Below are positions 5,009 through 25,355 of a stretch of 64,000 nt of DNA, in pieces. Each line of letters opens with the position of its first letter. Position 1 is the first letter of the stretch. The stretch lies in the NCBI RefSeq assembly GCF_031286615.1, contig NZ_JAITUA010000008.1; one strand, 5' to 3'. Under the pieces are notes generated by a model. That model worked only from the letters and a program-made list of their open reading frames with translations. It did not search any database and was not told the DNA's origin. A program made the translations under genes and the position numbers. Source of the stretch: Chryseobacterium sp. (GTDB taxonomy: Bacteria; Bacteroidota; Bacteroidia; Flavobacteriales; Weeksellaceae).

Positions 5009-5016
5009 TATCTTTG
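5009..5016 (+). promoter_or_regulatory. Bacteroidota-type -7 box (TATCTTTG)
   Basis: Exact TAnnTTTG match 13 nt upstream of the ATG at 5029. Confidence 0.4.
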
Positions 5017-5028
5017 CCCCAGAAAATT

Positions 5029-5157
5029 ATGACAATACAAAGAGCACATATCAATGCAGAACTATTCGAAAGTCCTTCTAATAAAGGATTATTCGGATAT
5101 GATGAGATGATATGGAATGAGGCGAAATGTGCTGACTTTGGAAATTATTTACTGTAA
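5029..5157 (+). CDS. 42-aa small ORF (may instead be a small RNA)
   Basis: ATG to TAA gives MTIQRAHINAELFESPSNKGLFGYDEMIWNEAKCADFGNYLL. It sits between a -7 box and an intrinsic terminator. I recognise no homology. Confidence 0.3.
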   Translation: MTIQRAHINAELFESPSNKGLFGYDEMIWNEAKCADFGNYLL

Positions 5158-5187
5158 ACTTGTAAAAAATTAATCAAAATACAACAG

Positions 5188-5223
5188 AAACGCCTCGGAA
5201 AACCGAGGCGTTTTTTGTTTTTT
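5188..5223 (+). terminator. intrinsic terminator
   Basis: Hairpin AAACGCCTCGG-aaaa-CCGAGGCGTTT followed by a T-tract. Confidence 0.75.
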
Positions 5224-5544
5224 AGGTCAGAAATTATTTAGAATGAAAAAAAATAACCATAAACATGAAAATTTTTTAATAAACAATGAAACTTTAATAC
5301 GATAAAATAGAGTGATAAGCAACCCGGTGAGAGACAGTCATTTAGGTAATTAAGATATCTGCAAAATATTGCGGACAGAAATTCTCTACTCTAAAAACAA
5401 GGTGTAATCAATTGATTATCAGTAATTTAATTTGGAAATTTATTTGCGGATTCCAAAAATTCATATTTACTTTGCAACCGAAAATTGAAAGCAACAGGTT
5501 TTCAGGATTCAATTAAAAATAATTTAGAAACAAACAAAAATAAA

Positions 5545-5670
5545 ATGAAACAGTTACACAACATATTCAATCAATATTCAAGACTATTCGGACATGAGCC
5601 GGCAGGAGTTCTGTGTATTCTTGATAGTGAAATTGTGGATAAAAGGTGCTTATATACGTGGGTCAGCTAA
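5545..5670 (+). CDS. 41-aa small ORF (or ncRNA) just upstream of the tRNA array
   Basis: ATG at 5545 lies inside track ORF 5485-5670. A TTACTTTG -7-like box is at 5467-5474 and a terminator follows at 5695-5725. I recognise no homology. Confidence 0.25.
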   Translation: MKQLHNIFNQYSRLFGHEPAGVLCILDSEIVDKRCLYTWVS

Positions 5671-5694
5671 TGATCTCTTACGTTTAAAAATATG

Positions 5695-5725
5695 AAGCGC
5701 CTCCCGAAAAGAGGCGCTTTTTTTT
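5695..5725 (+). terminator. intrinsic terminator
   Basis: Hairpin AAGCGCCTC-ccgaaaa-GAGGCGCTT followed by T6. It ends 3 nt before the first tRNA. Confidence 0.75.
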
Positions 5726-5727
5726 AT

Positions 5728-5800
5728 GGTTTCTTTAGCTTATTTGGTAAAGCGCCGGTCTGTGGAACCGGAGAACAGGGTTCGATCCCCGGAGATACCC
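5728..5800 (+). tRNA. tRNA-His(GTG)-like, imperfect
   Basis: Anticodon arm CCGGT-CTGTGGA-ACCGG with GTG at 5762-5764. D stem GCTT/AAGC and T loop TTCGATC. The acceptor GGTTTCT/AGATACC has a T-T mismatch, the T stem has an A-G mismatch, and there is no clean G-1:C73. No CCA is encoded. Confidence 0.6.
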
Positions 5801-5809
5801 AAAATATAG

Positions 5810-5883
5810 AATCCCATAGCTCAATTGGTTAGAGCATCGACCTGATACGTCGAAGGTTGAAGGTTCGATTCCTTCTGGGATTA
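5810..5883 (+). tRNA. tRNA-Ile(GAT)
   Basis: Cloverleaf AATCCCA|TA|GCTC-AATTGGTTA-GAGC|A|TCGAC-CTGATAC-GTCGA|AGGTT|GAAGG-TTCGATT-CCTTC|TGGGATT|A. All stems pair perfectly. Confidence 0.9.
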
Positions 5884-5888
5884 CAAAT

Positions 5889-5944
5889 GTGAATTGTGAA
5901 ATTAAAAATTGACAAGCGAAACGAATTGATTATTGACGATTCAC
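5889..5944 (+). repeat. GTGAAT...ATTGACAAGCG...ATTCAC hairpin repeat, copy 1
   Basis: Shares 'aaaaattgacaagcg....g.attga..ttgac.attcac' with 31701-31787. The terminal dyad is GTGAAT/ATTCAC. Confidence 0.55.
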
Positions 5945-5955
5945 AAAATTAAAAC

Positions 5956-6029
5956 AATCTCATAGCTCAAATGGTTAGAGCACCGGTCTTTTAAACCGGG
6001 GGTTGAAAGTTCAAATCTTTCTGGGATTA
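5956..6029 (+). tRNA. tRNA-Lys(TTT)
   Basis: AATCTCA|TA|GCTC-AAATGGTTA-GAGC|A|CCGGT-CTTTTAA-ACCGG|GGGTT|GAAAG-TTCAAAT-CTTTC|TGGGATT|A. Confidence 0.9.
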
Positions 6030-6036
6030 CAAAAAC

Positions 6037-6110
6037 GGTTCCGTAGCTCAACCGGATAGAGCATGGGTTTTCTAAACCCAGGGTTAGAGGTTCAAGTCCT
6101 CTCGGAATCA
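6037..6110 (+). tRNA. tRNA-Arg(TCT)
   Basis: GGTTCCG|TA|GCTC-AACCGGATA-GAGC|A|TGGGT-TTTCTAA-ACCCA|GGGTT|AGAGG-TTCAAGT-CCTCT|CGGAATC|A. Confidence 0.9.
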
Positions 6111-6116
6111 CAAAAA

Positions 6117-6173
6117 GGTTCATGGAAAATTTCCAATCCGGCTGTCTCCCGGAAAAGAAACAGAAGTGAACCC
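6117..6173 (+). other. T-arm-less tRNA-Asp(GTC)-like mini-element (degenerate tRNA?)
   Basis: 7-bp acceptor-like helix GGTTCAT/GTGAACC. Small hairpin GGAA-aat-TTCC. Anticodon-like arm TCCGG-CTGTCTC-CCGGA with GTC at 6144-6146. An unstructured 12 nt replaces the T arm. Confidence 0.3.
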
Positions 6174-6178
6174 CAAAG

Positions 6179-6250
6179 CTGGAAAGATAACGGTGGTTGT
6201 TTACCCGTCTTGGACGCGGGAGGTCGCAAGTTCGAATCTTGCTTTCCAGA
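6179..6250 (+). tRNA. tRNA-Pro(TGG)
   Basis: Acceptor CTGGAAA/TTTCCAG, with C1:G72 and A73 as is typical for bacterial tRNA-Pro. Anticodon arm CCCGT-CTTGGAC-GCGGG. T arm GCAAG-TTCGAAT-CTTGC. The D stem is weak (3 bp). Confidence 0.8.
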
Positions 6251-6256
6251 CAATTT

Positions 6257-6328
6257 GTTCCATTAGCATAGAGGTAAGTGCATTCGGCTTTCTACCGAAC
6301 GACAAGGGTTCGATCCCCTTATGGAATA
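6257..6328 (+). tRNA. tRNA-Glu(TTC), copy 1 (U37 atypical)
   Basis: GTTCCAT|TA|GCAT-AGAGGTAA-GTGC|A|TTCGG-CTTTCTA-CCGAA|CGAC|AAGGG-TTCGATC-CCCTT|ATGGAAT|A. Position 37 is T rather than a purine. Confidence 0.75.
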
Positions 6329-6333
6329 CAAAT

Positions 6334-6407
6334 GATTTCGTAGCTCAAGTGGTTAGAGTGTCGGTCTGATACACCGAAGGTTGAAGGTTCGAGTCCTTCC
6401 GGAATTA
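6334..6407 (+). tRNA. tRNA-Ile(GAT), copy 2
   Basis: GATTTCG|TA|GCTC-AAGTGGTTA-GAGT|G|TCGGT-CTGATAC-ACCGA|AGGTT|GAAGG-TTCGAGT-CCTTC|CGGAATT|A. Confidence 0.85.
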
Positions 6408-6411
6408 CAAT

Positions 6412-6483
6412 GATTTTGTAGCTCAATGGTAGAGCGCCGGTCTGTTAAACCGGAAGTTGAAAGTTCGAATCTTTCCGGAATCG
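6412..6483 (+). tRNA. tRNA-Asn(GTT)
   Basis: GATTTTG|TA|GCTC-AATGGTA-GAGC|G|CCGGT-CTGTTAA-ACCGG|AAGTT|GAAAG-TTCGAAT-CTTTC|CGGAATC|G. Confidence 0.88.
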
Positions 6484-6509
6484 CAGGTAACTAATTGTTA
6501 ATTGTTTCA

Positions 6510-6586
6510 GGAGAAAGTAAAAGTTTGTCGAGAGCAGAAGATCTTTACGCCAAACACGAAAATACAGACAGACTTTTCTTCTCTCC
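6510..6586 (+). repeat. tRNA-array hairpin element, copy 1
   Basis: Lower stem ggagaaagtaaaagTTTGTC / GACAGActtttcttctctcc. Conserved apical sequence GAGAGCAGAAGATCTTTAcgCCAAAC. Confidence 0.8.
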
Positions 6587-6630
6587 CGATTAATTAAAAG
6601 TTAAAGAATATCATTTATAAATTTTTAGGT

Positions 6631-6695
6631 AAAAATAAAGTTTGTTGAGCGCAGAAGATCTTTAATCAAACAATTTTAGACAGACTTTATTTTTT
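6631..6695 (+). repeat. tRNA-array hairpin element, copy 2
   Basis: Lower stem aaaaataaagTTTGT / ACAGACtttattttt. Apical sequence TGAGCGCAGAAGATCTTTAatCAAAC. Confidence 0.8.
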
Positions 6696-6701
6696 TAATC
6701 T

Positions 6702-6784
6702 GATGGTTCGCCGAAGTGGAAGAGTCGGGGGCGGTCTGCAAAACCGTTGTGTAAACTGAGTGGGTTTGAATCCCATAGCCATCT
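6702..6784 (+). tRNA. class-II-bodied tRNA with a Cys anticodon (GCA) and U73
   Basis: Acceptor GATGGTT/AGCCATC plus discriminator T. Tyr-like D arm CCGA-AGTGGAAGAG-TCGG. Anticodon arm GCGGT-CTGCAAA-ACCGT with GCA at 6738-6740. 12-nt extra region. T arm GTGGG-TTTGAAT-CCCAT. Confidence 0.6.
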
Positions 6785-6865
6785 CAATGTAAAAACTATA
6801 GGAGATATAAGAATCTTTTATCAATGATCTTTTATCATCTATAGCAAAGAATATCCTTTATTAAT

Positions 6866-6935
6866 AAAAGAAAAAGGCTGTCGAGCGCAGAAGATCTTTA
6901 ACCAAACATTCAATAAAGACAGACCTTTTCTTTTT
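6866..6935 (+). repeat. tRNA-array hairpin element, copy 3
   Basis: Lower stem aaaagaaaaaGGCTGTC / GACAGACCttttcttttt. Apical sequence GAGCGCAGAAGATCTTTAacCAAAC. Confidence 0.8.
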
Positions 6936-6988
6936 AAAAGGAAAAAATGAGGAATTACTTATTCATGACTAATTGCTCATAAAAATCC

Positions 6989-7072
6989 GGAAGTACGCCG
7001 AAGTTGGAGAGTCGGGGCAGACTGTAAATCTGTTGCTTCATTGCTGAGTAGGTTCGAATCCTACTACTTCCA
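6989..7072 (+). tRNA. tRNA-Tyr(GTA), class II
   Basis: GGAAGTA|CG|CCGA-AGTTGGAGAG-TCGG|G|GCAGA-CTGTAAA-TCTGT|long variable arm (TTCA-ttgc-TGAG)|GTAGG-TTCGAAT-CCTAC|TACTTCC|A. Confidence 0.88.
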
Positions 7073-7077
7073 CTCAA

Positions 7078-7148
7078 CCACTGATAATGTAATGGCAGCA
7101 TGCAGGAAATGTACTCTTGTTGTTTAGGTTCGATTCCTGGTCAGTGGG
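7078..7148 (+). tRNA. tRNA-like gene with ambiguous anticodon (TGT/Thr if the loop is 7 nt, but A33)
   Basis: CCACTGA|TA|ATGT-AATGGCA-GCAT|G|CAGGA-AATGTAC-TCTTG|TTGT|TTAGG-TTCGATT-CCTGG|TCAGTGG|G. Position 33 is A and several pairs are G-T. Confidence 0.45.
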
Positions 7149-7153
7149 TTAAC

Positions 7154-7225
7154 GCTCTATTCGTCTAACGGTGAGGACGCCTGCCTTTCGAGCAGAAAAC
7201 AAGGGTTCGATTCCCTTATAGAGTA
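7154..7225 (+). tRNA. tRNA-Glu(TTC), copy 2
   Basis: GCTCTAT|TC|GTCT-AACGGTGA-GGAC|G|CCTGC-CTTTCGA-GCAGA|AAAC|AAGGG-TTCGATT-CCCTT|ATAGAGT|A. The TTCGTCTA..GGAC D arm is typical of bacterial tRNA-Glu. Confidence 0.82.
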
Positions 7226-7325
7226 CTGGATGTGAATAGCTGGTCAATATTGAATTGATATAATACCATGAAAGTTCAGATTTTTTTTTAAAATTGGCCA
7301 GTTACCATTCACACAAAAAATAAAG

Positions 7326-7395
7326 AAAAGAGAAAAAGGACTGTCAGGAGCAGAAGATCTTTAGTCAATAAAAATAGACAGCCTTTTACTTTTTT
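7326..7395 (+). repeat. tRNA-array hairpin element, copy 4
   Basis: Lower stem aaaagagaaaaaGGACTGTC / GACAGCCttttactttt. Apical sequence AGGAGCAGAAGATCTTTAgtCAATA. Confidence 0.8.
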
Positions 7396-7417
7396 AAAAC
7401 AAAATACATTAGGAAAT

Positions 7418-7492
7418 GAGAAAGGTTTGTCAAGCGCAGAAGATCTTTACAAATACTAGCAGGCATAATTTATAAACAGACAGAGCTTTCTC
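7418..7492 (+). repeat. tRNA-array hairpin element, copy 5
   Basis: Lower stem gagaaaGGTTTGTC / GACAGAGCtttctc. Apical sequence AAGCGCAGAAGATCTTTAcaaatac, with a longer loop than the other copies. Confidence 0.8.
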
Positions 7493-7588
7493 AAACCTAG
7501 ACATCATCTGAGTAATAAGCAATGAATGATGAGTAATTAAACAGCATAAATTACTTATTACAAATTGCTCATTATTGAGAAAAACGCT

Positions 7589-7664
7589 GCGGGAATGGTG
7601 GAATGGCAGACACTCTTGATTTAGGATCAAGCTTTTGGGGGTTCGAGTCCCCCTTCCCGTACCA
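7589..7664 (+). tRNA. tRNA-Leu(TAG) with a short (5-nt) variable region and encoded CCA
   Basis: Acceptor GCGGGAA/TTCCCGT plus A73, followed by CCA at 7662-7664. Leu-like D arm GGTGGAATGGCAGAC. Anticodon arm CTTGA-TTTAGGA-TCAAG. Variable region is only CTTTT. T arm GGGGG-TTCGAGT-CCCCC. Confidence 0.7.
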
Positions 7665-7751
7665 AAATATTAGTAATAAATAATGAGCAATGAGTAATGA
7701 TGCTAACAGTAGATATTTCTCATTACCAATTACTTATTGCTTATAAAATCT

Positions 7752-7824
7752 GGAAGAGTGGTGTAGAAGGTCTGCACGTTAGTCTGAAAAACTAAAGGTA
7801 CAGGTTCAATTCCTGTCTGTTCCA
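7752..7824 (+). tRNA. tRNA-Phe(GAA)
   Basis: Acceptor GGAAGAG/CTGTTCC (one G-G mismatch) plus A73. D stem GTGT/GCAC with a 9-nt loop. Anticodon arm TTAGT-CTGAAAA-ACTAA. T arm ACAGG-TTCAATT-CCTGT. Confidence 0.75.
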
Positions 7825-7884
7825 CAAAATATGAATGATAAATGATTGCTGGGCATTTCATCATTTATCAATTATAATTAAAAC

Positions 7885-7956
7885 TGATTCATAGTGTAAT
7901 AGGCAGCACACAAGATTTTGATTCTTGGAGTTTAGGTTCGGGTCCTAATGAATTAA
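7885..7956 (+). tRNA. tRNA-Gln(TTG)
   Basis: TGATTCA|TA|GTGT-AATAGGCA-GCAC|A|CAAGA-TTTTGAT-TCTTG|GAGT|TTAGG-TTCGGGT-CCTAA|TGAATTA|A. The U1:A72 pair is typical of bacterial tRNA-Gln. Confidence 0.82.
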
Positions 7957-7962
7957 CAATTT

Positions 7963-8033
7963 ACTCTGATAGTGTAATGGAAGCATCTCAGTCTCCAAAA
8001 CTGATGGTACTGGTTCGAGTCCGGTTCAGAGTG
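7963..8033 (+). tRNA. tRNA-Trp(CCA)
   Basis: ACTCTGA|TA|GTGT-AATGGAA-GCAT|C|TCAGT-CTCCAAA-ACTGA|TGGT|ACTGG-TTCGAGT-CCGGT|TCAGAGT|G. A1:U72 with G73 is typical of bacterial tRNA-Trp. Confidence 0.88.
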
Positions 8034-8117
8034 CAAAAGATGAAACCAGTGATGGGTTATCATTTATCATTTATCAATTATCAACAATCATTTATCAATT
8101 TAAAATATGTAGAAAAA

Positions 8118-8603
8118 ATGGAAACGCAACAACAAACATGGCAGAATATGAATGGAAAATTTTTCCAAAACTCTATCACACAGCTGGTAGAAGAAGCCAT
8201 TATCCGCGAACAGGCAAACGGACACCGTCTGAAAGTATGTGTGGGATCAGACTCTCATGTATATGGAGATGCCATCAATTATGCTACGGCAGTAGTATTT
8301 ATTCGTGAGGGAAAAGGAGCGTTTACCTTTATTAGAAAAGAAAGAGAAATACAGAGTATCAGTATCAAAGAGCGAATGCTGAATGAGGTTAACAAATCCG
8401 TAGAAATTGCATACGCTATCTGCTCTGTGTTGGATACTTATGGTGTAGAAATGGAGGTACACGCAGACATTAATACCGACCCCGATTTTAAATCCAATGT
8501 CGCACTTAAAGATGCAATGGGATACATTCTGGGAATGGGATATGTGTTTAAAGCAAAACCTTTTGCCTTCGCAAGTTCCAATTGTGCTGATATGATGGTT
8601 TAA
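8118..8603 (+). CDS. YkuK/DUF458-type RNase H-like fold protein
   Basis: Start trimmed to the ATG at 8118, because the track ORF start at 7977 overlaps tRNA-Trp. 'KVCVGSDSH..YATAVVFIREGKGAF..KERMLNEV..EVHADIN..KP.AFASS.AD' matches my recollection of the YkuK family. Confidence 0.6.
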   Translation: METQQQTWQNMNGKFFQNSITQLVEEAIIREQANGHRLKVCVGSDSHVYGDAINYATAVVFIREGKGAFTFIRKEREIQSISIKERMLNEVNKSVEIAYAICSVLDTYGVEMEVHADINTDPDFKSNVALKDAMGYILGMGYVFKAKPFAFASSNCADMMV

Positions 8604-8619
8604 TCTTTTAATCAAAAAA

Positions 8620-9432
8620 ATGAAAACAGTTTTAATTATTAATGGAGAAAAATATTGGAAGGATTATTTTGCAGGATTTGATGTAGTTCAGAAGAAAGTT
8701 CAGACATCAGAGTTTATGATAAAAGATTCTTCATTGTATGTAGTTGATGCAGATGGAGTCTGCAAGCCGGATATTATTTTCTGGCGGCTGGGAGCAATTA
8801 ATCCCGACCCCAAATATAGAAATATCCTAGAGTTGATTGACTATTCAGGAGTAGTTTGTATTAATTCTGCTTCCACATTATTAATGGGATATGAAAGGCT
8901 TACGATGCTGAATATCCTTAAAAAACTAGGGTTACCGGTTATCAACTTTAATGTAGCGACAAATACTCAGTATTTGAAAAATATGGAAATGAAATTTCCT
9001 TTTGTAGTTAAAGTTGGAAATCACCATGGTGGATACGGTAAAAGTCTGGTTTCAACAGAAGAGCAATGGGAAGAACTGAAAGACTTATTGTTTATTCATA
9101 GGAATTACGTGACTATCGAAAAGTTTATTGATTATAAATATGATATTCGCTATCTGGCTATAAATGATAAAGTTTGGGCAATGAAAAGAAGAGGGAAATA
9201 TTGGAAAGCCAATTCTTTAACTCAAGAATACCAAATTATAAATCCGGAAGATGAATGGATTGAAAAAGTAAAACTTTTACAGCAATATATCAAGGCTGAT
9301 ATTGTAGCCATTGATGTTTTGGAAACAGAAAATGGAGAAAAAATAATTTTAGAATACAATGATATTCCTGGTCTTTCAGGGTTTCCTGAAGATGTAAGGC
9401 TGGAATTATCAATGACAGTGAAAAGTAAATAA
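8620..9432 (+). CDS. ATP-grasp enzyme (RimK-like)
   Basis: 'FPFVVKVGNHHGGYGKS', 'RYLAINDKVWAMKRRG..WKANS' and 'VAIDVLETENGEKIILEYNDIPGLSG' are ATP-grasp core motifs. Confidence 0.72.
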   Translation: MKTVLIINGEKYWKDYFAGFDVVQKKVQTSEFMIKDSSLYVVDADGVCKPDIIFWRLGAINPDPKYRNILELIDYSGVVCINSASTLLMGYERLTMLNILKKLGLPVINFNVATNTQYLKNMEMKFPFVVKVGNHHGGYGKSLVSTEEQWEELKDLLFIHRNYVTIEKFIDYKYDIRYLAINDKVWAMKRRGKYWKANSLTQEYQIINPEDEWIEKVKLLQQYIKADIVAIDVLETENGEKIILEYNDIPGLSGFPEDVRLELSMTVKSK

Positions 9433-9454
9433 AAGAACCTTAAAATCAAAGAAT

Positions 9455-10231
9455 ATGTATTTTTTAGTTCAGGCTAATGTGTATTTAGATCCGGATCACT
9501 ATAAAATTTTTGATGCGCTGGAAGAATTGAATATCGATTACGATGTAATTAATATTCCTCCAGCAGCTGAGAAAATAGATTTTAATATAGACAGAAAAGA
9601 TGTTTTTGTCTATGGATCAGTAACCATTGCAAGATTGGCAAAACAAAATACAGAATGGTTTCCTGGTTCTTTTTACGGAGGCAATCATCTCTATGAAGTA
9701 TATTCTAAATATTATGGTGAAAACCTTCTTAATTATAATGTTTCTGTTCATAAAATCTCTGAGCAGCTGACTTGGGAAAAAGGTGAACTTAAATTCATTA
9801 AACCCTACAGTGAAGCAAAGATTTTTACAGGAAAAGCTTTTACAGAAATAGAATGGAAAGATTTTGTGTTTGAGGCACTGGAAAATCAAACCAATAGAAT
9901 TACGAAAGATTCTTTGGTACAGGTTTCCAAGGCAAAACGAACGATGAAAGAAGCAAGACTTTGGATTGTGGGGGGACAGATCATCGATGGAGGTTATTAT
10001 AAATTCAATGATGATGCTCCTTTTGAAGAAAAAGTTTCACAGGAAGGATTGGATTTTGCCAATAAAATGATTCAGCTTTTTAATCTTGAAGAAGCTTTTG
10101 TAATGGATATTTGTTTAACAGATGAAGGTTGGAAAATAGTTGAAATAAATTGTATCAACAGTTCTGGATTTTATCCAAACACCAATGTAAAAAGTGTTAT
10201 AAAAGCATTGAGCATTTATTTTTCAAATTAA
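9455..10231 (+). CDS. divergent ATP-grasp protein (DUF4343/R2K-like)
   Basis: 'FIKPYSEAKIFTGKAF', 'ARLWIVGGQIIDGGYY' and 'AFVMDICLTDEGWKIVEINCINSSGFY' give an ATP-grasp C-terminal signature. Confidence 0.55.
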   Translation: MYFLVQANVYLDPDHYKIFDALEELNIDYDVINIPPAAEKIDFNIDRKDVFVYGSVTIARLAKQNTEWFPGSFYGGNHLYEVYSKYYGENLLNYNVSVHKISEQLTWEKGELKFIKPYSEAKIFTGKAFTEIEWKDFVFEALENQTNRITKDSLVQVSKAKRTMKEARLWIVGGQIIDGGYYKFNDDAPFEEKVSQEGLDFANKMIQLFNLEEAFVMDICLTDEGWKIVEINCINSSGFYPNTNVKSVIKALSIYFSN

Positions 10232-10243
10232 ATTAACAGAACA

Positions 10244-10615
10244 ATGGAAAAAACAAAAAGATTATTATTTCTGGATGATATAAGATATCCTGTTGAGGCG
10301 TATCACTATACCAAACAGGAGATTTTCCTCAGAAATGACTGGCATATTGTGCGGAATTACGAGCAGTTTGTCAACAGGATTTTGGAAAAAGGACTTCCGG
10401 AAATGATTTCTTTTGACCATGACCTTGCCGATGAGCATTATCTGAAGCCGGATTCTCAGGAATTTGTTGAGAAAACAGGATACGACTGCGCCAAATGGCT
10501 GGTAGAATATTGTATGGACAATTATCTGGATCTTCCAAAATTCTATAGTCACTCCATGAATCCGGTAGGAAAGGAAAATATTCTTTCCCTTTTAAAAAAC
10601 TTTAAAAAACTGTAA
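10244..10615 (+). CDS. cyclic-phosphate-processing receiver (cREC) domain protein
   Basis: 123 aa. 'LFLDDIRYP', 'WHIVRNYEQF', 'ISFDHDL', 'TGYDCAKWLV' and 'HSMNPVGKENI' are the family hallmarks as I recall them. Confidence 0.65.
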   Translation: MEKTKRLLFLDDIRYPVEAYHYTKQEIFLRNDWHIVRNYEQFVNRILEKGLPEMISFDHDLADEHYLKPDSQEFVEKTGYDCAKWLVEYCMDNYLDLPKFYSHSMNPVGKENILSLLKNFKKL

Positions 10616-11178
10616 TGGATATTTTTAGATATATTCAGGATATAAAAACACATCTGAAACTCACATTTGATGAGGTAGACGGATGGTTTGAAAAAGATAA
10701 AGAAACGTTGAATCATCAGCCTTCAAACGGAGGCTGGACGGTTCAGCAGATTTTAGAACACATTTATCTTACAAATTTTTACTTGCTGATCCTTATTGAA
10801 AAAGGCGCCAAAAAAGCAATGAAGAATTCTTTGAATCTTGACCTTGAATCTGAAATAAAAAACTACAGTTTTAATAAGAAAAACTTTGACAGGGTAGGTG
10901 AACATGGTGCTTTTGAATGGATAAGACCAGAACATATGGAACCGAAAGGAGAATTAGGTCCGGATAAAATCAGAAGTTTAATGAGCCAGCAGTATCTACT
11001 GTGTTTACATTATCTGGAAGTGATGAAAAATGGTGAAGGACTCTTGTATAAGACGACAATGACAGTGAATGAGCTGGGGAAAATCAATGTATACGAATAT
11101 ATTTATTTTCTGTCACTTCATGCTCAGAGACATGTTACCCAGATGAAGAAAAACGAATCAGAAACGATTAAAAACTAA
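10615..11178 (+). CDS. DinB-family four-helix-bundle metalloprotein
   Basis: 'GGWTVQQILEHIYLTNFY' and the C-terminal 'LHAQRHVTQM' His-containing helices. The start overlaps the previous stop (TAATG). Confidence 0.65.
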   Translation: MDIFRYIQDIKTHLKLTFDEVDGWFEKDKETLNHQPSNGGWTVQQILEHIYLTNFYLLILIEKGAKKAMKNSLNLDLESEIKNYSFNKKNFDRVGEHGAFEWIRPEHMEPKGELGPDKIRSLMSQQYLLCLHYLEVMKNGEGLLYKTTMTVNELGKINVYEYIYFLSLHAQRHVTQMKKNESETIKN

Positions 11179-11184
11179 GACAAA

Positions 11185-12201
11185 ATGATTTTTAAAACAT
11201 ATAACTCTATAGAAAATGCTTATCAGACCCGCGTGATCGAACAGATCAGGATGCAGGGTTTTGGGGATGAGGTTTTCATAGTACAGGAAAAAGTTCACGG
11301 AGCTAATTTCTCTTTCTTTACCGACGGAAAGGAAATTAAAATCGCGAAGAGAACTGCTTTCATCGAAAAAGATGAAAAATTTTTCAATGCACATCAGATC
11401 TTGGAACGCTACAGAAAAAATGTATTAGAAGTGTTTCAGAAAGTGAAAACCATCCATCCGGATGTAGAAACTGTAGTGATCTACGGCGAATTGTTCGGTG
11501 GCGGTTACAAACATAAAGAAGTAGAACCTGTAAAAGATGCAGTGAAGGTACAGAAAGGCATTGAGTATGCCCCTCACAACGAATTTTACGCTTTCGATAT
11601 CAAATTGAATGGGATTACCTATTTGGATACAGAAGTTGTCAATCAGATTTTTGAGGAGACAGGATTTTTCTATGCTAAAATCTTGTTCCAGGGAACTCTA
11701 GAAGATGCTTTGAAATTCCCCAATGTTTTCAATTCAAAAATTCCGGCCTGGCTGGGATTGCCTGAAATGGAGAACAATATGTGTGAAGGTACCATCGTAA
11801 AAACTTTGAAAACCAAATATTTTGGAAACGGTGCAAGAATTATTCTTAAAAATAAGAATGAAAAATGGGTCGAAAAATCCAAAATGGTTAAAAAAGAGGC
11901 TAAAATTGTTCAGAAACAGGTTCATTTCAGTGAAAAAGCTCAGGAAATCTGGGAGGAAATCCAAAAATATGCTACTGTCAACAGGCTGAATAATGTTATC
12001 AGCAAAATTGGTGAATTCGAACCTAAAATGATAGGCAGGGTGATTGGCCTTTTTGCTCAGGATATTTTAGAAGACTTCGAGAAAGACTTCCCGGCAGCTT
12101 TTACAGCAATTGAAAAAGAAGAGCAGAAAAGGATCAACAAAAAGTTGAATTCTTTAGTAATTGATTTTATAAAAGAAGAGTTGATGACTCTTAAAGTATA
12201 G
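11185..12201 (+). CDS. RNA ligase, Rnl2 (T4 RnlB-like) family
   Basis: 338 aa, similar in size to T4 Rnl2. Motif I 'EKVHGANFSF' (Lys36), 'IYGELFGG', motif IV-like 'CEGTIVK', motif V 'IILKNKNEKW'. Confidence 0.8.
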   Translation: MIFKTYNSIENAYQTRVIEQIRMQGFGDEVFIVQEKVHGANFSFFTDGKEIKIAKRTAFIEKDEKFFNAHQILERYRKNVLEVFQKVKTIHPDVETVVIYGELFGGGYKHKEVEPVKDAVKVQKGIEYAPHNEFYAFDIKLNGITYLDTEVVNQIFEETGFFYAKILFQGTLEDALKFPNVFNSKIPAWLGLPEMENNMCEGTIVKTLKTKYFGNGARIILKNKNEKWVEKSKMVKKEAKIVQKQVHFSEKAQEIWEEIQKYATVNRLNNVISKIGEFEPKMIGRVIGLFAQDILEDFEKDFPAAFTAIEKEEQKRINKKLNSLVIDFIKEELMTLKV

Positions 12202-12229
12202 TTTCGGTATTTTTTACCGAAACTTTTTT
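12201..12229 (+). terminator. intrinsic terminator after the RNA ligase gene
   Basis: Hairpin GTTTCGGTA-ttttt-TACCGAAAC followed by T6. Confidence 0.7.
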
Positions 12230-12366
12230 GTATATAAACCTAACCATAAATGCTGCGTGAGTTTAAGGACCTGATTTTCATTATGCAGTAAGTTTGTCAT
12301 TCCGTAGGAATCTCAACCGTTAAAAGTGAAAATAGGCTTTCTTTTATGGTTTAAAAAAGAAAAAAT

Positions 12367-13311
12367 ATGTTACAGGCAGAAATAAAAAGTCTTTTAAAAG
12401 AAGACATTAGTATATTAATTAAAATTCCTAATTCAGGAAAGCACTATTTGTGTGATTGTGGAGAAGGAAGTTTATTAACTGTGAAAGAAGTACAGTCTAT
12501 ATCAGCTATATTCATAAGCCATACCCATATTGATCACTTTTCAAATTTCGATGGGATTTTCAGACATCAGATCGGAAGCGGAGAAAAAGTGATGATTTGT
12601 GGACCAAAAAATATTCATCAACAGGTTGAAGCAAGGTTAAAATCTTACACATGGAATCTGATTGATGAAAAAGCAATTGAATATGAAATTCGTGAAATTG
12701 TTTCACAAAATGAAATTAATATTTATACCCTTCGTCCGCCACATTGGAATCTGGAGTTGGTAAAGACTCAGAACTTCCTGTTTGAAGACGAATATGTCAA
12801 CGTTGATTTTGCTATTCTGGATCATAAAACAGATTCTATCGCTTATTTATTTAAAGAAAAAGATTCCGTCACCTTTAATGAAAATGCTTCCGGTTTTAAA
12901 AAAGGAAAGTGGATCAGCGAGCTGAAAACCGCTTTTGAAAATAATGATGGTGATAAAGAAATCAAAATTGAAGAAACTGTTTACAAAGCAGCTGATCTGT
13001 TTCACCTATTGACCCGTAATGCGGGCTATAAACTTGGCGTAATCATGGATCATGCGGCAGATGAAAACAATTACGAAAAAATCAGAACCGTATTTGAAGG
13101 TGCAGATATCGTGTATATCGAAAGCTTTTATAAAGATACAGATCAGGAATTTGCAAAGATCAATTACCACAGTTTTGCTTCTGCATCAGGAAAAATTATG
13201 AATGAATGTCAGGTGAAAGAAGCCATTCCAATTCACTTTTCAAGAAGATATACGGAAAGCGATCAGGAAGAAATTGAAACTGCTTTTTATAAAGCGTTTC
13301 GTAAGAATTAA
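12367..13311 (+). CDS. MBL-fold metallo-hydrolase (RNase Z/BN-like)
   Basis: 'FISHTHIDHFSNFDG' (HxHxDH) together with later D/H motifs. Confidence 0.7.
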   Translation: MLQAEIKSLLKEDISILIKIPNSGKHYLCDCGEGSLLTVKEVQSISAIFISHTHIDHFSNFDGIFRHQIGSGEKVMICGPKNIHQQVEARLKSYTWNLIDEKAIEYEIREIVSQNEINIYTLRPPHWNLELVKTQNFLFEDEYVNVDFAILDHKTDSIAYLFKEKDSVTFNENASGFKKGKWISELKTAFENNDGDKEIKIEETVYKAADLFHLLTRNAGYKLGVIMDHAADENNYEKIRTVFEGADIVYIESFYKDTDQEFAKINYHSFASASGKIMNECQVKEAIPIHFSRRYTESDQEEIETAFYKAFRKN

Positions 13312-13367
13312 TTAAAAATATTTATTAAACAAAACTATAGCATTCACAGAATAGTAATGTATGTACT

Positions 13368-13442
13368 TGTCATTCTGACAAAGGAAGAATCTCTTTAAGG
13401 AGAAAGATTCTTCATTCCACTTTGTTTCTTTCAGAATGACAG
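13368..13442. repeat. GTCATTCTGA/GAAGAATCTC palindromic intergenic element
   Basis: Nested dyad ttGTCATTCTGAcaaaGGAAGAATCTct...agAGATTCTTC...TCAGAATGACag. Related partial copies are at about 12290-12325 and 41875-41955. Confidence 0.6.
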
Positions 13443-13476
13443 AGAGAATGTTGTAGTTAAAAAACAATTTAAAAAA

Positions 13477-14040
13477 ATGAAACCCAATATATTTTTTACT
13501 GCTGATCATCATTTTGGTCACGAGAATATTATAAAATTTTCAGAAAGACCTTTTGAATCTCTGGACCATATGAATGAAGAACTCATTAAAAGATGGAATG
13601 AGAAAATTCAACCCGGTGACACGGTCTACCATTTAGGAGATATGAGTCTGGGAAAACCGGATTTTACAAAAGAGATTTTAGACAGATTAAATGGTAATAT
13701 CCATTTGATAAAGGGCAACCACGAAGGCGCAGCTTTAGCTTATCCCAAGCGCTTTGCTTCCATCAGAGATTATCACGAACTGAAAATTGATGAAGCAGAT
13801 AACAGCAACAGAAAACAGAAAATCATTCTTTTCCACTACGCCATGCGTACCTGGAATGGCTCACACCGAGGGGTCTGGCAGTTATACGGACATTCACATG
13901 GAACATTACCGGATGATGAAATGGCACTGAGTTTTGACGTAGGAGTAGACTGCCACAATTTTTATCCGGTTTCCTACGAGGAAGTCAAAGAAATTATGAA
14001 AAGGAAAAAATGGACACCACCATTTGGTCCAAGAAATTAA
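13477..14040 (+). CDS. calcineurin-like metallophosphoesterase
   Basis: 'FFTADHHFGH', 'YHLGDMSLG', 'IKGNHE' and 'GHSHG' are the canonical MPE motifs. Confidence 0.8.
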   Translation: MKPNIFFTADHHFGHENIIKFSERPFESLDHMNEELIKRWNEKIQPGDTVYHLGDMSLGKPDFTKEILDRLNGNIHLIKGNHEGAALAYPKRFASIRDYHELKIDEADNSNRKQKIILFHYAMRTWNGSHRGVWQLYGHSHGTLPDDEMALSFDVGVDCHNFYPVSYEEVKEIMKRKKWTPPFGPRN

Positions 14041-14155
14041 TGATGAGTAATAAGTAATGATTTGATGGAAGGAAAAATGGGAACGATATTTCAATGAGTA
14101 TTCAACAGCTTTCATCATACATTTTACTTTTTTACATCGTACATTTTATAATAAC

Positions 14156-14698
14156 ATGAAAACAACCAATGAGATCATAATTATCGATCTGGAAGCTACA
14201 TGTTGGGAAAACGACAGAATTCCCATCGGGCAGAAAGTCGATATTATAGAAATAGGGATTTGTAAATTAAACTTAACATCAAAAGCAATTTCCCAAAAAC
14301 AAAGCATTTATGTAATTCCTGAAAGATCAGAAATCAACAGATTTTGTACACAACTAACCGGAATTAGTCCTCAACTGATAGAAGAAAAAGGAATCTATTT
14401 TGAAGAAGCCTGTGAAATGATCAGAGATCAATACCGTTCTGCACCGCTTACATGGGCAGGATACGGAAACTTTGATGGAGAGCAGATCATAGAACAGTAC
14501 GACTGGCTTGGTATAAAAAATCCTTTTTCGGAAAACTATATGAATGTGATGCATGAATTCAAAAGACATTTCAGACTGCATAAACAAATAGGGCTTAAAA
14601 GAGCCTTGAGTTATCTGAAGATGGATTTTGAAGGCACTCATCACAGTGGAGCAGACGATGCTTACAATACAGCCAGAATTTTAAGTAAGATTCTGTAA
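14156..14698 (+). CDS. DEDDh 3'-5' exonuclease (ERI-1/KapD-like), copy 1
   Basis: 'IIIDLEATCWE' (Exo I) and 'HSGADDAYNTARIL' (Exo III, H-x4-D). Confidence 0.8.
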   Translation: MKTTNEIIIIDLEATCWENDRIPIGQKVDIIEIGICKLNLTSKAISQKQSIYVIPERSEINRFCTQLTGISPQLIEEKGIYFEEACEMIRDQYRSAPLTWAGYGNFDGEQIIEQYDWLGIKNPFSENYMNVMHEFKRHFRLHKQIGLKRALSYLKMDFEGTHHSGADDAYNTARILSKIL

Positions 14699-14809
14699 AA
14701 TAATTAGGCTGGAAGACTGAAGCTGGAGGCTGGAAGTAAATCAGACGCTGTAAAAACTTCCATCTTCCTGCATCCATCTTCTATCCTTTAACAATTAAAT
14801 TTTAAACAA

Positions 14810-15364
14810 GTGAAAACAACAGAAAATATATTAATCGTAGATCTTGAGGCCACGTGTTGGGAAAACCGACCGCCAAGAGGCCAGGAAAGCGAGATCATCG
14901 AGATCGGTGTATGCATCATGAATGCAAAAACCGGTAAGATCTCCAAAAATGAGGGGATTTTAATAAAACCCCAATATTCAAAAGTAAGTCCGTTTTGTAC
15001 AGAGCTTACTACCCTTACCCAAAATATGCTGGATAATGAAGGAATCATGCTGGATGATGCATTCGATATCCTGAGAGCAGAATATGATTCAGAAGAACTG
15101 ACGTGGGCCAGCTACGGAAACTACGATCTGAATATGCTTCAGAATCAGGCAAGAAGATTCTACACAGATTATCCTATGAGTGATGACCATATTAATGTGA
15201 AAACATTATTTGGAGAAACTCATCCTACCATCAGGAAAAGTGTCGGGATGAACAGAGCTTTGGGTGAATTGGGACTTACACTGGAAGGTACACACCACAG
15301 AGGAGTAGATGATGCCAAAAACATTGCAAAGATTCTACATTGGTGCCTGAAAAAGTCCTTATAA
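14810..15364 (+). CDS. DEDDh 3'-5' exonuclease, copy 2 (tandem paralog)
   Basis: 'LIVDLEATCWE' and 'HRGVDDAKNIAKIL'. Collinear with 14156-14698. GTG start. Confidence 0.8.
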   Translation: MKTTENILIVDLEATCWENRPPRGQESEIIEIGVCIMNAKTGKISKNEGILIKPQYSKVSPFCTELTTLTQNMLDNEGIMLDDAFDILRAEYDSEELTWASYGNYDLNMLQNQARRFYTDYPMSDDHINVKTLFGETHPTIRKSVGMNRALGELGLTLEGTHHRGVDDAKNIAKILHWCLKKSL

Positions 15365-15407
15365 AACCATTAAAATTTATATATTTAGATATCTTGAATA
15401 TTAATAA

Positions 15408-16442
15408 ATGACTGAAAAATATAATATCCTGGAGCACATGAGAATGCGTCCTGGAATGTATGTTGGTTTTCTGAACCATTTTGGCTATAATGAATTAATA
15501 AGCTACTTCATTAAAGATTTTATCAGAGCTGACATCTATGATATTACTTTCACCCTGAAAAAAGATAATAGACTGGTTATGAAATGGACTAGTTATAAAA
15601 AAACGCTTTTTAATACAGAAATCATAAAAAAGATTAATCAGTATCAACAAGAACCATTTTATTTATCATTGGCTGGTATTATTGCACTGACAGAGTATTC
15701 TACGATTGAGATTAATGGTGTACCTATACTACAATCAGAAAAAGGAAACTTTGAAGTTTTGGACAGCATTAATTATATTAATGAAGAAGAGACCTGCAAT
15801 TGGACGATTGATTTCATTCCTGATCAAGATATTTTTAAAGGTTTGATATTGAGTTACCAAATTTTGAATGATTTGTTCAGAAGGTTTTCCTTTTTGGATT
15901 CAAATATGAAAATAAAAAGCATTGATGAATCTGAAGATGAACAACAGATCAATATTTTTCATTATCCAAATGGTTTAGCAGAGATTATAAATTATGAAGT
16001 GGAAAAGAGTTTGCTGTATGATTTCTATTTTTTTACATTGAATTTTCGAAAAAAAACAGAATATTCATATTCAGTAGCATTTGCCTTTGCAGATAATCAG
16101 ATCTTTAAACCTAAAATCAAGATATATGCAAATTATCAAGAAACCTTTCTGGGAGGATCTTTACTGGATGGAATTATGCAAGGATTCAAGATGTCTTTGA
16201 AAGAAGAAGCTGCAAAGAGAAATATGAAATTAAATATAAGTACAACAAGACTTAAAAAATACCTGTTGCTTTATGCTTCTGTACAAGGAGAACTTACATT
16301 TTTGGGTTCAACAAGATGGAAGCTTGGAACTCTGAAAGTGCAGACAGAAATTAAGAACTTTATGTATGAAGAGCTAAAACTTTATTTTGCCAATAATGAA
16401 GATAAGGTAATTCATATCCTACAAATTTTACGGGATGAATAG
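15408..16442 (+). CDS. GyrB/ParE N-terminal-like protein with a degenerate GHKL ATP site
   Basis: 'LEHMRMRPGMYVG' matches the GyrB N-terminal signature. The expected E..DN..DE N-box reads 'YFIKDFIRAD'. At 344 aa it has no Toprim or tail. Confidence 0.5.
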   Translation: MTEKYNILEHMRMRPGMYVGFLNHFGYNELISYFIKDFIRADIYDITFTLKKDNRLVMKWTSYKKTLFNTEIIKKINQYQQEPFYLSLAGIIALTEYSTIEINGVPILQSEKGNFEVLDSINYINEEETCNWTIDFIPDQDIFKGLILSYQILNDLFRRFSFLDSNMKIKSIDESEDEQQINIFHYPNGLAEIINYEVEKSLLYDFYFFTLNFRKKTEYSYSVAFAFADNQIFKPKIKIYANYQETFLGGSLLDGIMQGFKMSLKEEAAKRNMKLNISTTRLKKYLLLYASVQGELTFLGSTRWKLGTLKVQTEIKNFMYEELKLYFANNEDKVIHILQILRDE

Positions 16443-16444
16443 TA

Positions 16445-16474
16445 AAAGGCTCCCTTTAATATGGGAGCTTTTTG
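16445..16474. terminator. bidirectional terminator between convergent genes
   Basis: Hairpin AAAGGCTCCC-tttaatat-GGGAGCTTTTT. It overlaps the 3' end of the minus-strand hydrolase gene. Confidence 0.6.
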
Positions 16475-21335: not shown

Positions 21336-21337
21336 AT

Positions 21338-23577: not shown

Positions 23578-23613
23578 TACGCAAAAAGGTTGCGCAATAC
23601 TGTTTTTACTTTG
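23578..23613 (+). promoter_or_regulatory. P(rsr): 19-mer TACGCAAAAAGGTTGCGCA, N9, then the -7-like box TTACTTTG
   Basis: The same 19-mer/N9/8-mer architecture occurs at 26791 and 27011. It lies about 60 nt upstream of the ATG at 23674. Confidence 0.55.
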
Positions 23614-23673
23614 CATCAGAAATCAGAGAGGAAGTATCAATTCTTCCCAATGTTTAACAAAAAAACAGTAACC

Positions 23674-25191: not shown

Positions 25192-25355
25192 AAGGCACTG
25201 CTTTTAAAAATAACAACTGACATTGATCAAAACAATCAATATATTTAGGAGCTAATCCTGCTTTCCACTATATCTTTTTCGCCAAAGCTTTTCTCAAGCC
25301 ATTCAGAAAAAGGATGCCGTTGCAATCAGGGCTATTGAATCAAACTATATATACT

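Follow-up and report, generated by a model that had tools for sequence, protein, structure and literature searches.

RNA-repair operons are widespread in bacteria, and to our knowledge their natural substrates and triggers are largely unknown. The closest prior art for the locus described here is the account by Burroughs and Aravind 2016, summarised in part in bioRxiv 10.1101/312249, in which Band-7/RtcB repair operons were predicted to have a tRNA-like gene, termed b7a-tRNA, beside them. We report a locus at positions 5728-16442 (+ strand) of a 64,000-nt stretch of a Chryseobacterium chromosome (the window, meaning the whole stretch that was analysed), in which an array of 16 tRNA genes is followed on the same strand by 11 open reading frames (ORFs), among them an Rnl2-family RNA ligase. 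Both systems combine RNA ligase genes with adjacent tRNA-like genes, and both are computational predictions. In the summarised account the Band-7 operon comprises one tRNA-like gene, RtcB and Band_7, whereas the window has 16 isoacceptor genes and Rnl2; no RtcB or Band_7 homologue was found in the 64-kb window, where Rnl2 stands in the place of RtcB. A junction with the YkuK gene, a putative leader attenuator, and cREC, ATP-grasp, DinB, RNase Z-like and DEDDh exonuclease cassettes go beyond that summary, by which the locus belongs to the predicted kind as an expanded variant. We consider it to be an accessory, conditionally expressed translation-rescue module, with a probability of roughly 0.6.

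Phage-encoded systems offer a second comparison. In a survey of jumbo phages, phage tRNAs together with Rnl1/Rnl2 ATP-grasp RNA ligases, cREC and calcineurin-type phosphoesterases were interpreted as a defence against anticodon nucleases (Iyer et al. 2021, PMC7824862). The window follows the same replacement-plus-repair logic as these phage sets (the T4 Pnkp/Rnl1 paradigm). Unlike them, it is chromosomal, genus-wide, physically fused, kinase-less and led by YkuK, relatives of which were absent from viral contigs. The initial annotation of this DNA named no experimental characterisation of the combined architecture; precedents exist in the jumbo-phage framing and, as far as the summarised account goes, in the predicted Band-7/RtcB operons.

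In Anabaena PCC 7120 the tRNA L-array is not expressed by default; translational stress induces it, it is regulated together with rtcB (Santamaria-Gomez et al. 2021, PMC8421152), and its repressor is TrcR (PMC10272220). Both it and the window's array are accessory and contain non-canonical members. The Anabaena array lies on a megaplasmid, is controlled by a repressor and has no adjacent repair genes, whereas in the window the repair genes are co-linear with the tRNAs and control appears to be by attenuation. A tRNA array unit has been defined as 20 or more genes for tRNA at a density of at least 2 per kb (Tran et al. 2016, PMC4758250). By this definition the window's array is dense enough (16 genes in 2.3 kb) and, with 16 genes, below the number of 20. 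In Salmonella, the rsr-yrlBA-rtcBA operon encodes Rsr (Ro60), Y RNA and RtcB under RtcR/sigma-54 control. Repair or quality-control proteins are encoded with tRNA-mimicking RNAs in both cases; unlike the Salmonella operon, the window has its Ro60 gene outside the array operon, with apparent attenuation instead of RtcR/sigma-54. The region ahead of the array resembles the trp, his and pheA leaders in its putative short leader ORF, its intrinsic terminator and a putative alternative pairing with the 3' end of the ORF, and differs from them in that it would control tRNA and repair genes and has no run of a single regulatory codon. Among the papers searched, none describes the junction of array and YkuK, the putative attenuator or the class-switched tRNAs presented below. 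The sequence also shows, as a new element, two conserved small ORF-terminator modules ahead of the array, of which the proximal one is attenuator-like.

The protein-coding part of the locus (8118-16442) is organised as follows.

8118-8603, + strand: YkuK/DUF458 RNase H-like protein, 161 aa, abutting the array (PF04308, 107 bits)
8620-9432, + strand: RimK-like ATP-grasp ligase, 270 aa (profile search)
9455-10231, + strand: R2K.3-clade ATP-grasp protein, 258 aa (R2K_3 PF14243, 89 bits)
10244-10615, + strand: cREC (cyclic-phosphate-processing receiver) protein, 123 aa (PF20274, 79 bits)
10615-11178, + strand: DinB_2 superfamily protein, 187 aa (profile search)
11185-12201, + strand: Rnl2-family RNA ligase, 338 aa (TIGR02307, PF09414, PF18043)
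12200-12224, + strand: intrinsic terminator directly 3' of the Rnl2 stop, end of unit 1
12289-12296, + strand: -7 promoter box TAAGTTTG, candidate start of unit 2 (consensus match)
12367-13311, + strand: RNase Z-like metallo-beta-lactamase (MBL)-fold hydrolase, 314 aa, HTHIDH motif (PF12706, NF002558)
13477-14040, + strand: calcineurin-type metallophosphoesterase, 187 aa, DHH/GD/GNHE motifs (Metallophos_2 PF12850)
14156-14698, + strand: DEDDh 3'-5' exonuclease 1, KapD/RNase T-like, 180 aa (PF00929, NF005838)
14810-15364, + strand: DEDDh 3'-5' exonuclease 2, 184 aa, a paralogue 42% identical to exonuclease 1 (PF00929)
15408-16442, + strand: truncated GyrB-like protein, 344 aa, GyrB transducer domain only (PF00204)
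16449-16468, - strand: terminator-like hairpin, convergent end of the locus

The eleven ORFs of the initial annotation are present at the coordinates it gave, and Pfam/NCBIfam profile searches upheld all eleven of its domain assignments, including Rnl2, cREC and the phosphoesterase. The MBL hydrolase retains its fold assignment and is better named RNase Z-like, and the protein described as degenerate GyrB-like matched only the second GyrB domain. The first six genes are indeed tightly packed, with gaps of -1 to 22 nt in place of the 0-24 nt reported; the later genes are separated by 43-165 nt. The notion of a single 11-gene operon did not survive. Because a terminator follows the Rnl2 stop codon and a -7 box lies ahead of the RNase Z-like gene, the eleven genes probably form two transcription units.

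Relatives of the locus were collected with cREC as the query, which returned 140 confirmed loci; 80 were kept, all from Chryseobacterium, with cREC proteins 85-98% identical. Together with a match to Flavo-1 RNA, these loci mark the window as part of a Chryseobacterium chromosome. Gene content was counted by tblastn and ARAGORN in 69 full-length loci, one per species, and related loci compared with the window are labelled with L-numbers (e.g. L097). The arrangement is far from chance, recurring in 69/69 loci in a fixed order of bpX genes, tRNA array, YkuK and cassettes. YkuK is present in every locus and always abuts the array. cREC is also found in all 69, being itself the query that found them. 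Other genes are less constant: exonuclease 2 (67/69), the phosphoesterase (59/69), Rnl2 and exonuclease 1 (55/69 each), the RNase Z-like gene (40/69), DinB (38/69), R2K (34/69), the RimK-like gene (17/69) and the GyrB-like gene (6/69), the last probably peripheral to the locus. The locus is thus cassette-like and rapidly reshuffled, and what invariably accompanies the array is YkuK rather than Rnl2 or cREC as such.

YkuK homologues in other Flavobacteriales (54-77% identity) fall into several clades. In the clade that contains Chryseobacterium, a tRNA array on the same strand runs up to the start of YkuK in 29/29 loci, and a second clade shows the same-strand array-YkuK junction in 6/7 testable loci. 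About 47 other YkuK loci lie in unrelated contexts without tRNAs, indicating that the link to arrays is specific to a subfamily and not family-wide. The distance from the last tRNA to YkuK is only 25-32 nt in several loci, which leaves no room for a promoter and implies co-transcription. The genes that follow differ between genera and include RtcB, a PrfH-like RF-1, an AlkB-like oxygenase, Rnl2 with HIRAN, the same phosphoesterase, R2K, exonucleases and Band_7. A homologue of the window's phosphoesterase adjoins the array in L097, RtcB occurs in L097, L099, L115-117, L145, L161, L164 and L176, and Band_7 ends the series of cassettes in 41 related loci, often followed by RtcB. The slot after the array therefore holds RNA-repair enzymes that vary between lineages, including ligases of unrelated folds, which is our strongest argument that the coupling concerns RNA repair. 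Unusually long tRNA-like genes (81-98 nt) were also seen 340-450 nt upstream of Band_7 (L051, 12782-12876; L099, 11067-11164; L107, 9954-10034), and any of them may be the band-7-associated tRNA that has been predicted.

The closest viral cREC homologues (52-55% identity) lie within arrays of 18-25 tRNA genes plus tmRNA, about 12 kb long, in five related uncultured phage contigs from IMG/VR of up to 363 kb (L082-L085 and L090). An R2K_3 ATP-grasp gene is located between tRNA genes in 3/5 of these contigs, its product being a 35% homologue of the window's R2K protein. Other phage cREC genes, including those of the cultured phages Cellulophaga phi17:2 and Stenotrophomonas DLP_6, are not beside tRNAs, and the five contigs therefore count as about one additional independent lineage. 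Many neighbouring ORFs in the phage clade had no Pfam match. When a phage origin of the window's array was sought, only generic tRNA similarity and no close phage DNA match came up. Homologous gene sets beside tRNA arrays were thus recovered across Chryseobacterium, in other Flavobacteriales with another ligase and in one phage clade. The proposal that spare tRNAs are coupled to a heal, trim and seal toolkit gains strong comparative support from this, without its single operon and without Rnl2 or cREC as fixed partners of the array.

Approximately 700 nt upstream of tRNA-His form a leader region that is conserved in 76/80 loci and contains the following elements.

5009-5016, + strand: Bacteroidetes-type -7 box TATCTTTG (consensus TAnnTTTG), candidate start of unit 1
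5029-5157, + strand: small ORF1, 42 codons, MTIQRAHINAELFESPSNKGLFGYDEMIWNEAKCADFGNYLL
5186-5215, + strand: intrinsic terminator 1, 13-bp stem with T-run
5460-5500, + strand: highly conserved non-coding block, 95-97% column identity
5545-5670, + strand: leader ORF2, 41 codons, MKQLHNIFNQYSRLFGHEPAGVLCILDSEIVDKRCLYTWVS, its last codons overlapping the antiterminator strand
5644-5657, + strand: candidate antiterminator strand AGGTGCTTATATAC, able to pair with 5690-5702
5694-5720, + strand: intrinsic terminator 2, ending 8 nt 5' of tRNA-His

The box at 5009 reads TATCTTTG in 75/77 species and TATATTTG in the other 2, and this box and the one at 12289 are the only two of the Bacteroidetes type on the + strand between 4700 and 16500. 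ORF1 is intact in 76/77 Chryseobacterium loci, is called as a gene in L081 and has a 37%-identical counterpart in L098. The stem of terminator 1 is kept across species while its loops vary. The conserved block at 5460-5500 is a possible second promoter or leader element. ORF2 is intact in 65/77 species, the exceptions displayed ending 3 codons early, and its third-codon-position bias is weak. Leader ORFs of 36-41 codons occupy the same position in L097, L098, L115, L117 and L119; a leader ORF ends over the candidate antiterminator strand in six lineages (the window's and five others).

Terminator 2 is 98.4% paired, with a compensatory G-C to A-U swap in 8 sequences. The arrays of L097, L098, L115, L117 and L119 have homologous terminators upstream, and a terminator also precedes the array in the second YkuK clade. 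When the 3' arm of the terminator is left out of the fold, the 14-nt strand pairs instead with the terminator's 5' arm; 97.2% of cells are paired in this antiterminator (63 sequences). In L097, L117 and L119 (Psychroserpens and two metagenomic relatives), the leaders pair by sequences unlike that of the window (GGAAGGU with ACCUUCC); there the antiterminator fold without the 3' arm is significant and the terminator fold is obtained with it. The proximal ORF-terminator module can thus adopt mutually exclusive terminator and antiterminator folds in four lineages. This arrangement suggests a leader-peptide attenuator that senses translation and would open upon ribosome stalling. Among the first ten codons of ORF2, those for Lys, Gln, His, Asn and Tyr make up 7/10 in the window and in L097 and 4-5/10 in the others, relative to a background of 0.25; this comparison is post hoc, and we treat the enrichment as a lead only.

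Between 5728 and 8034, ARAGORN placed 16 genes for tRNAs on the + strand, in agreement with the number annotated before. Except where noted, each was also found with Rfam.

5728-5800, + strand: tRNA-His(GUG), G-1 and C73 present
5810-5884, + strand: tRNA-Ile(GAU)
5956-6030, + strand: tRNA-Lys(UUU), body 76% identical to the Ile copies
6037-6111, + strand: tRNA-Arg(UCU)
6179-6251, + strand: tRNA-Pro(UGG), C1-G72
6257-6329, + strand: tRNA-Glu(UUC) copy 1, G1.U72
6334-6408, + strand: tRNA-Ile(GAU) copy 2
6412-6484, + strand: tRNA-Asn(GUU), G73
6702-6785, + strand: tRNA-Cys(GCA), class II-shaped (long variable arm), U73; ARAGORN
6989-7073, + strand: tRNA-Tyr(GUA), class II, A73; ARAGORN
7078-7148, + strand: tRNA-like 'Thr(UGU)', loop AAUGUAC, A33 for U33; ARAGORN, below the Rfam threshold
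7154-7226, + strand: tRNA-Glu(UUC) copy 2
7589-7664, + strand: tRNA-Leu(UAG), class I-shaped (short variable loop), A73, CCA encoded, G1.U72
7752-7825, + strand: tRNA-Phe(GAA)
7885-7957, + strand: tRNA-Gln(UUG), U1-A72
7963-8034, + strand: tRNA-Trp(CCA), G73, last gene of the array

The Rfam tRNA model scored 13/16 of these genes above its gathering score, the three below it being the class II-shaped Cys and Tyr genes and 'Thr' with its aberrant anticodon loop. Array size ranges from 5 to 18 tRNA genes in the 69 Chryseobacterium loci and reaches 19 in one metagenome locus. The array lacks His, Trp, Cys, Phe and Tyr in 8-27/69 species each, Gly, Ala and Val tRNAs occur in none of the 69 arrays, and Glu(UUC) is usually duplicated. 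Since essential isoacceptors differ between the arrays of different species, other copies must exist elsewhere, and the array tRNAs appear to be accessory by their presence and absence across species. Their acceptor and discriminator elements (His G-1/C73, Cys U73, Tyr A73, Pro C1-G72, Gln U1-A72) are retained across species, which argues for aminoacylation of the array tRNAs.

In bacteria, Leu, Ser and Tyr tRNAs are class II and Cys tRNA is class I. Against this rule, Leu(UAG/UAA) genes in the arrays are 74-76 nt long with a short variable loop, and Cys(GCA) has 83 nt and a long arm in 66/66 Chryseobacterium copies. tRNA-Cys and tRNA-Leu are therefore class-switched, a state conserved across dozens of species, and seem to retain the chief identity elements. 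Across arrays, the acceptor stems of Glu, Leu, Met and many Ile copies end in a G1.U72 pair. The A33 species has the loop AANNNAC, an anticodon that drifts among UGU, UAU and AGU, and an N73 that varies among species; it may not be a decoding tRNA. The bodies of the Ile, Lys, Arg and Asn genes are mutually 63-76% identical, suggesting duplication followed by anticodon switching.

Two kinds of hairpin are interspersed with the tRNA genes.

6510-6590, + strand: hairpin element copy 1
6631-6694, + strand: hairpin element copy 2, ending a few nt ahead of tRNA-Cys
6866-6934, + strand: hairpin element copy 3
7326-7395, + strand: hairpin element copy 4
7417-7493, + strand: hairpin element copy 5
7507-7580, + strand: AT-rich long hairpin between Glu and Leu (z -6.4)
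7683-7744, + strand: AT-rich hairpin between Leu and Phe (z -3.8)
7830-7876, + strand: AT-rich hairpin between Phe and Gln (z -4.0)

The hairpin element occurs in five copies in the window, where 0.05 would be expected. It consists of a 12-bp stem, purine-rich on one strand and pyrimidine-rich on the other, with compensatory changes in 6/12 pairs, and a loop with an almost unchanging segment (rAGmGCAGAAGATCTTTA). All 157 of 157 matches with at most one mismatch in the 69 full loci were inside arrays; none was found in viral contigs or in the arrays of other genera. Processing of the tRNAs probably releases the element as a small RNA. Neither the hairpin elements nor the leader matched an Rfam family even at a permissive E-value, and weak Rfam matches to YrlA and Phe_leader were dismissed as they overlap tRNAs and terminators. 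The AT-rich inverted and direct repeats, with units such as TCATTTATCAATTATCAA and GAGTAATAAG, lie at 7505-7580, 7665-7750, 7830-7880 and 8040-8110; they form long hairpins between the last tRNAs and ahead of YkuK, and may be processing sites.

The AlphaFold2 (AF2) model of YkuK has a pLDDT of 77. Its structure search returned no significant match, hence no specific mechanism is assignable, and its weak fold matches were enriched for RNase H-type nucleases. R2K.3 enzymes are regarded as peptide ligases predicted to modify proteins. The cREC protein scores 79 bits against a PF20274 gathering score of 27 and contains LFLDDIR and SFDHDL, read from the translation as candidates for the conserved acidic residues of the receiver active site. 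It shares its unit with Rnl2 and has no histidine kinase among its neighbours, matching the observation that cREC genes occur with RNA ligases or repair genes and never with histidine kinases (PMC7824862). The family was defined by Iyer et al. 2021, so the earlier attribution of these modules to Burroughs and Aravind 2016 was right only in part; cREC was described in 2022 as experimentally uncharacterised and mostly a phage domain (PMC9503650). It is predicted to hydrolyse 2',3'-cyclic phosphate.

Rnl2 scores 206.2 bits with TIGR02307 (equivalog cutoff 197.15), 80 bits with the nucleotidyltransferase domain PF09414 and 83.5 bits with the C-terminal domain PF18043, and aligns over its full length with residues 2-327 of T4 Rnl2 (2HVQ, E=1.6e-33). 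Both motifs that the initial annotation had singled out are present in the translation, EKVHGAN as motif I (KxxG) and KNKNEKW within motif V (LKNKNEKW). Sealing of 3'-OH/5'-PO4 nicks is predicted. The RNase Z-like protein has an HxHxDH motif and scores 220 bits with NF002558 (cutoff 315) and 106 with TIGR02651 (cutoff 293); as both models are below cutoff, it is named RNase Z-like only. As the initial annotation had stated, profile searches found no polynucleotide kinase or RtcB among the window proteins, and no kinase domain in the eleven proteins or their neighbours. The median dN/dS is 0.03-0.11 for ten genes of the locus, including YkuK (0.11), the RimK-like protein (0.08), cREC (0.08), the RNase Z-like protein (0.07) and the phosphoesterase (0.03). 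By this measure the ten genes are functional and under purifying selection. The value for the GyrB-like gene, 0.27, comes from a single pair.

The array has, directly upstream of it, a complete bpMoxR/bpX0-4 'ternary' conflict system (window 74-4731, + strand; L081 1-8359), with bpX4, DUF4919, the bpMoxR AAA+ protein, BpX2, bpX0/bpX1, bpX3 and a 340-aa protein without Pfam match. The bpX genes are upstream in all Chryseobacterium species and absent from the array loci of other genera. Kaur et al. 2020 drew no link between MoxR-vWA-propeller systems and tRNA or RNA repair, and PADLOC defence models matched neither the bpX genes nor the operon proteins. A functional tie to bpMoxR was rejected because the bpX genes are missing at non-Chryseobacterium array loci; the adjacency is genus-specific synteny. 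Downstream of the locus are genes for an alpha/beta hydrolase, MarR, DUF6493, SWIM and Ro60/TROVE proteins. The DUF6493/DUF7824/DUF7825 protein (898 aa) and the SWIM zinc-finger protein (447 aa) are encoded in succession at 18639-22681 (+ strand), a pair also present downstream of the locus in roughly one third of Chryseobacterium species. The Ro60/TROVE (Rsr) gene (23590-25191, + strand) is followed at once by a Flavo-1 RNA (RF01705, an orphan motif) at 25250-25337 (- strand). This pairing was found in 6/7 other Chryseobacterium loci tested; in the window the two are 7 kb downstream of the locus, whereas other species have them right behind the cassettes. A literature search found no link between Flavo-1 and Ro60. 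Flavo-1 may be a Y-RNA-like partner of flavobacterial Ro60.

If the locus is a translation-rescue module, it could work as follows. Transcription probably starts near 5009 and would have to pass the two small-ORF-plus-terminator modules. During normal translation of the leader, ribosomes would cover the antiterminator strand, the terminator would form and the array would remain off. Ribosomes stalled by cleaved tRNAs or poisoned translation would allow the antiterminator to form and RNA polymerase to enter the array. One long transcript would then carry the 16 spare tRNAs, the hairpin RNAs and the mRNA for YkuK, the two ATP-grasp proteins, cREC, DinB and Rnl2, and the second unit would supply the RNase Z-like enzyme, the phosphoesterase and the two 3'-5' exonucleases. 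The spare tRNAs, some of them structural variants, would refill the tRNA pool. cREC and the phosphoesterase would open and remove 2',3'-cyclic or 3'-phosphate ends, trimming of 3' ends would fall to the exonucleases and the RNase Z-like enzyme, sealing of 3'-OH/5'-P breaks to Rnl2, and YkuK may act as a processing nuclease or as one that excises damage.

Several observations weigh against this interpretation. Rnl2 is missing from 14/69 loci, and the near-universal enzymes are only YkuK, cREC and exonuclease 2. Classical anticodon nucleases leave 5'-OH ends, which Rnl2, with this gene set alone and hence without a kinase, could not seal. The antiterminator pairing is invariant within the genus, with no covariation among the 63 sequences, and in the window its fold is not significantly better than shuffles. 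The promoter is a tentative consensus match, since no -33 TTG matching the 5009 box was found. Redundancy with housekeeping tRNAs is deduced from presence and absence across species. The roles of YkuK, cREC, DinB and both ATP-grasp proteins are predictions in any organism, stress-gated expression and enzyme activities at the locus are likewise deduced, and we infer repair activity itself and a link to specific anticodon nucleases from sequence.

Other explanations were considered for the same data. The tRNA-like genes may not be translation spares at all, serving instead as cofactors or scaffolds that bind the machinery of ligase or nuclease, or as decoys for nucleases that attack tRNA. Y RNAs with Ro60 provide a model for a cofactor or scaffold role of tRNA-like RNAs. 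Such a role would be in line with the b7a-tRNA idea of Burroughs and Aravind, as far as it is summarised (bioRxiv 10.1101/312249), with the closure of cassettes by Band_7 in 41 related loci, with the presence of Ro60 and Flavo-1 RNA near the locus in many cases, and with the conserved oddities of the array (the A33 loop with its drifting anticodon, G1.U72, class-switched Leu and Cys, and the hairpin RNAs). However, about 16 anticodons are maintained with their cognate identity elements, which is hard to explain without aminoacylation, the tRNA repertoire is stable across genera and the window strain has no Band_7. We consider this explanation unlikely.

An ordinary tRNA operon equipped with its own maturation enzymes, in which the RNase Z-like, RNase T-like and YkuK proteins process the precursor, is more improbable. 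The RNase Z-like and DEDDh assignments, the genus-wide fixed position in the chromosome and the many spacers and hairpins that require processing would all be expected of it. It fits poorly with an array that varies in content, loses essential isoacceptors, duplicates others and lacks Gly, Ala and Val, with repair-type partners (Rnl2/RtcB ligases, cREC, PrfH and AlkB-like proteins), with the terminators and leader ORFs that gate the array, and with an RNase Z-like gene in just 40/69 loci. We give least credence to a domesticated or decaying phage-derived block beside bpMoxR, either functionless or an effector-reset or immunity component of that system. The closest phage homologues of cREC and R2K do sit in phage tRNA arrays, cREC is mostly a phage domain (PMC9503650), the bpX genes are always upstream in Chryseobacterium and the tRNA bodies look duplicated with switched anticodons. 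Set against these are the absence of integrase, structural or other phage genes at the locus, the dN/dS of 0.03-0.11, conservation across the genus and in genera without bpX, the lack of a close phage DNA match to the array and of YkuK in viral contigs, and the two terminators that separate the locus from the bpMoxR genes.

The translation-rescue interpretation can be extended to a more specific proposal, which we put forward as tentative and somewhat doubtful: the leader ORF would sense tRNA integrity, and ribosomes stalling on its first codons would flip the attenuator and release nuclease-resistant tRNAs, hairpin RNAs and repair enzymes together in a single transcript. As parts of this joint proposal, the first codons of the leader ORF might sample the nuclease-targeted isoacceptors Lys, Gln, His, Asn and Tyr, the hairpin RNAs might be nuclease decoys or ligase cofactors, and the class I-shaped Leu, the class II-shaped Cys, G1.U72 and A33 might confer nuclease resistance.

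In this locus tRNAs as candidate substrates, a translation-sensing leader as candidate trigger and the enzymes stand side by side in a culturable genus, and its natural variants swap the ligase and accessory cassettes, providing a directly testable system. Which damage is answered, whether the spare tRNAs are induced by stress and what YkuK, cREC and the R2K ATP-grasp proteins do are questions that become approachable here. The class-switched tRNA-Leu and tRNA-Cys are of interest for the rules of tRNA identity and for resistance to tRNA-targeting toxins. Should the tRNA-integrity proposal be true, a single unit would hold sensor, spare parts and repair crew, making the locus a self-contained 'translation immune response' of bacteria, and YkuK and R2K ATP-grasp proteins would be tRNA-directed enzymes, the first function for either family.

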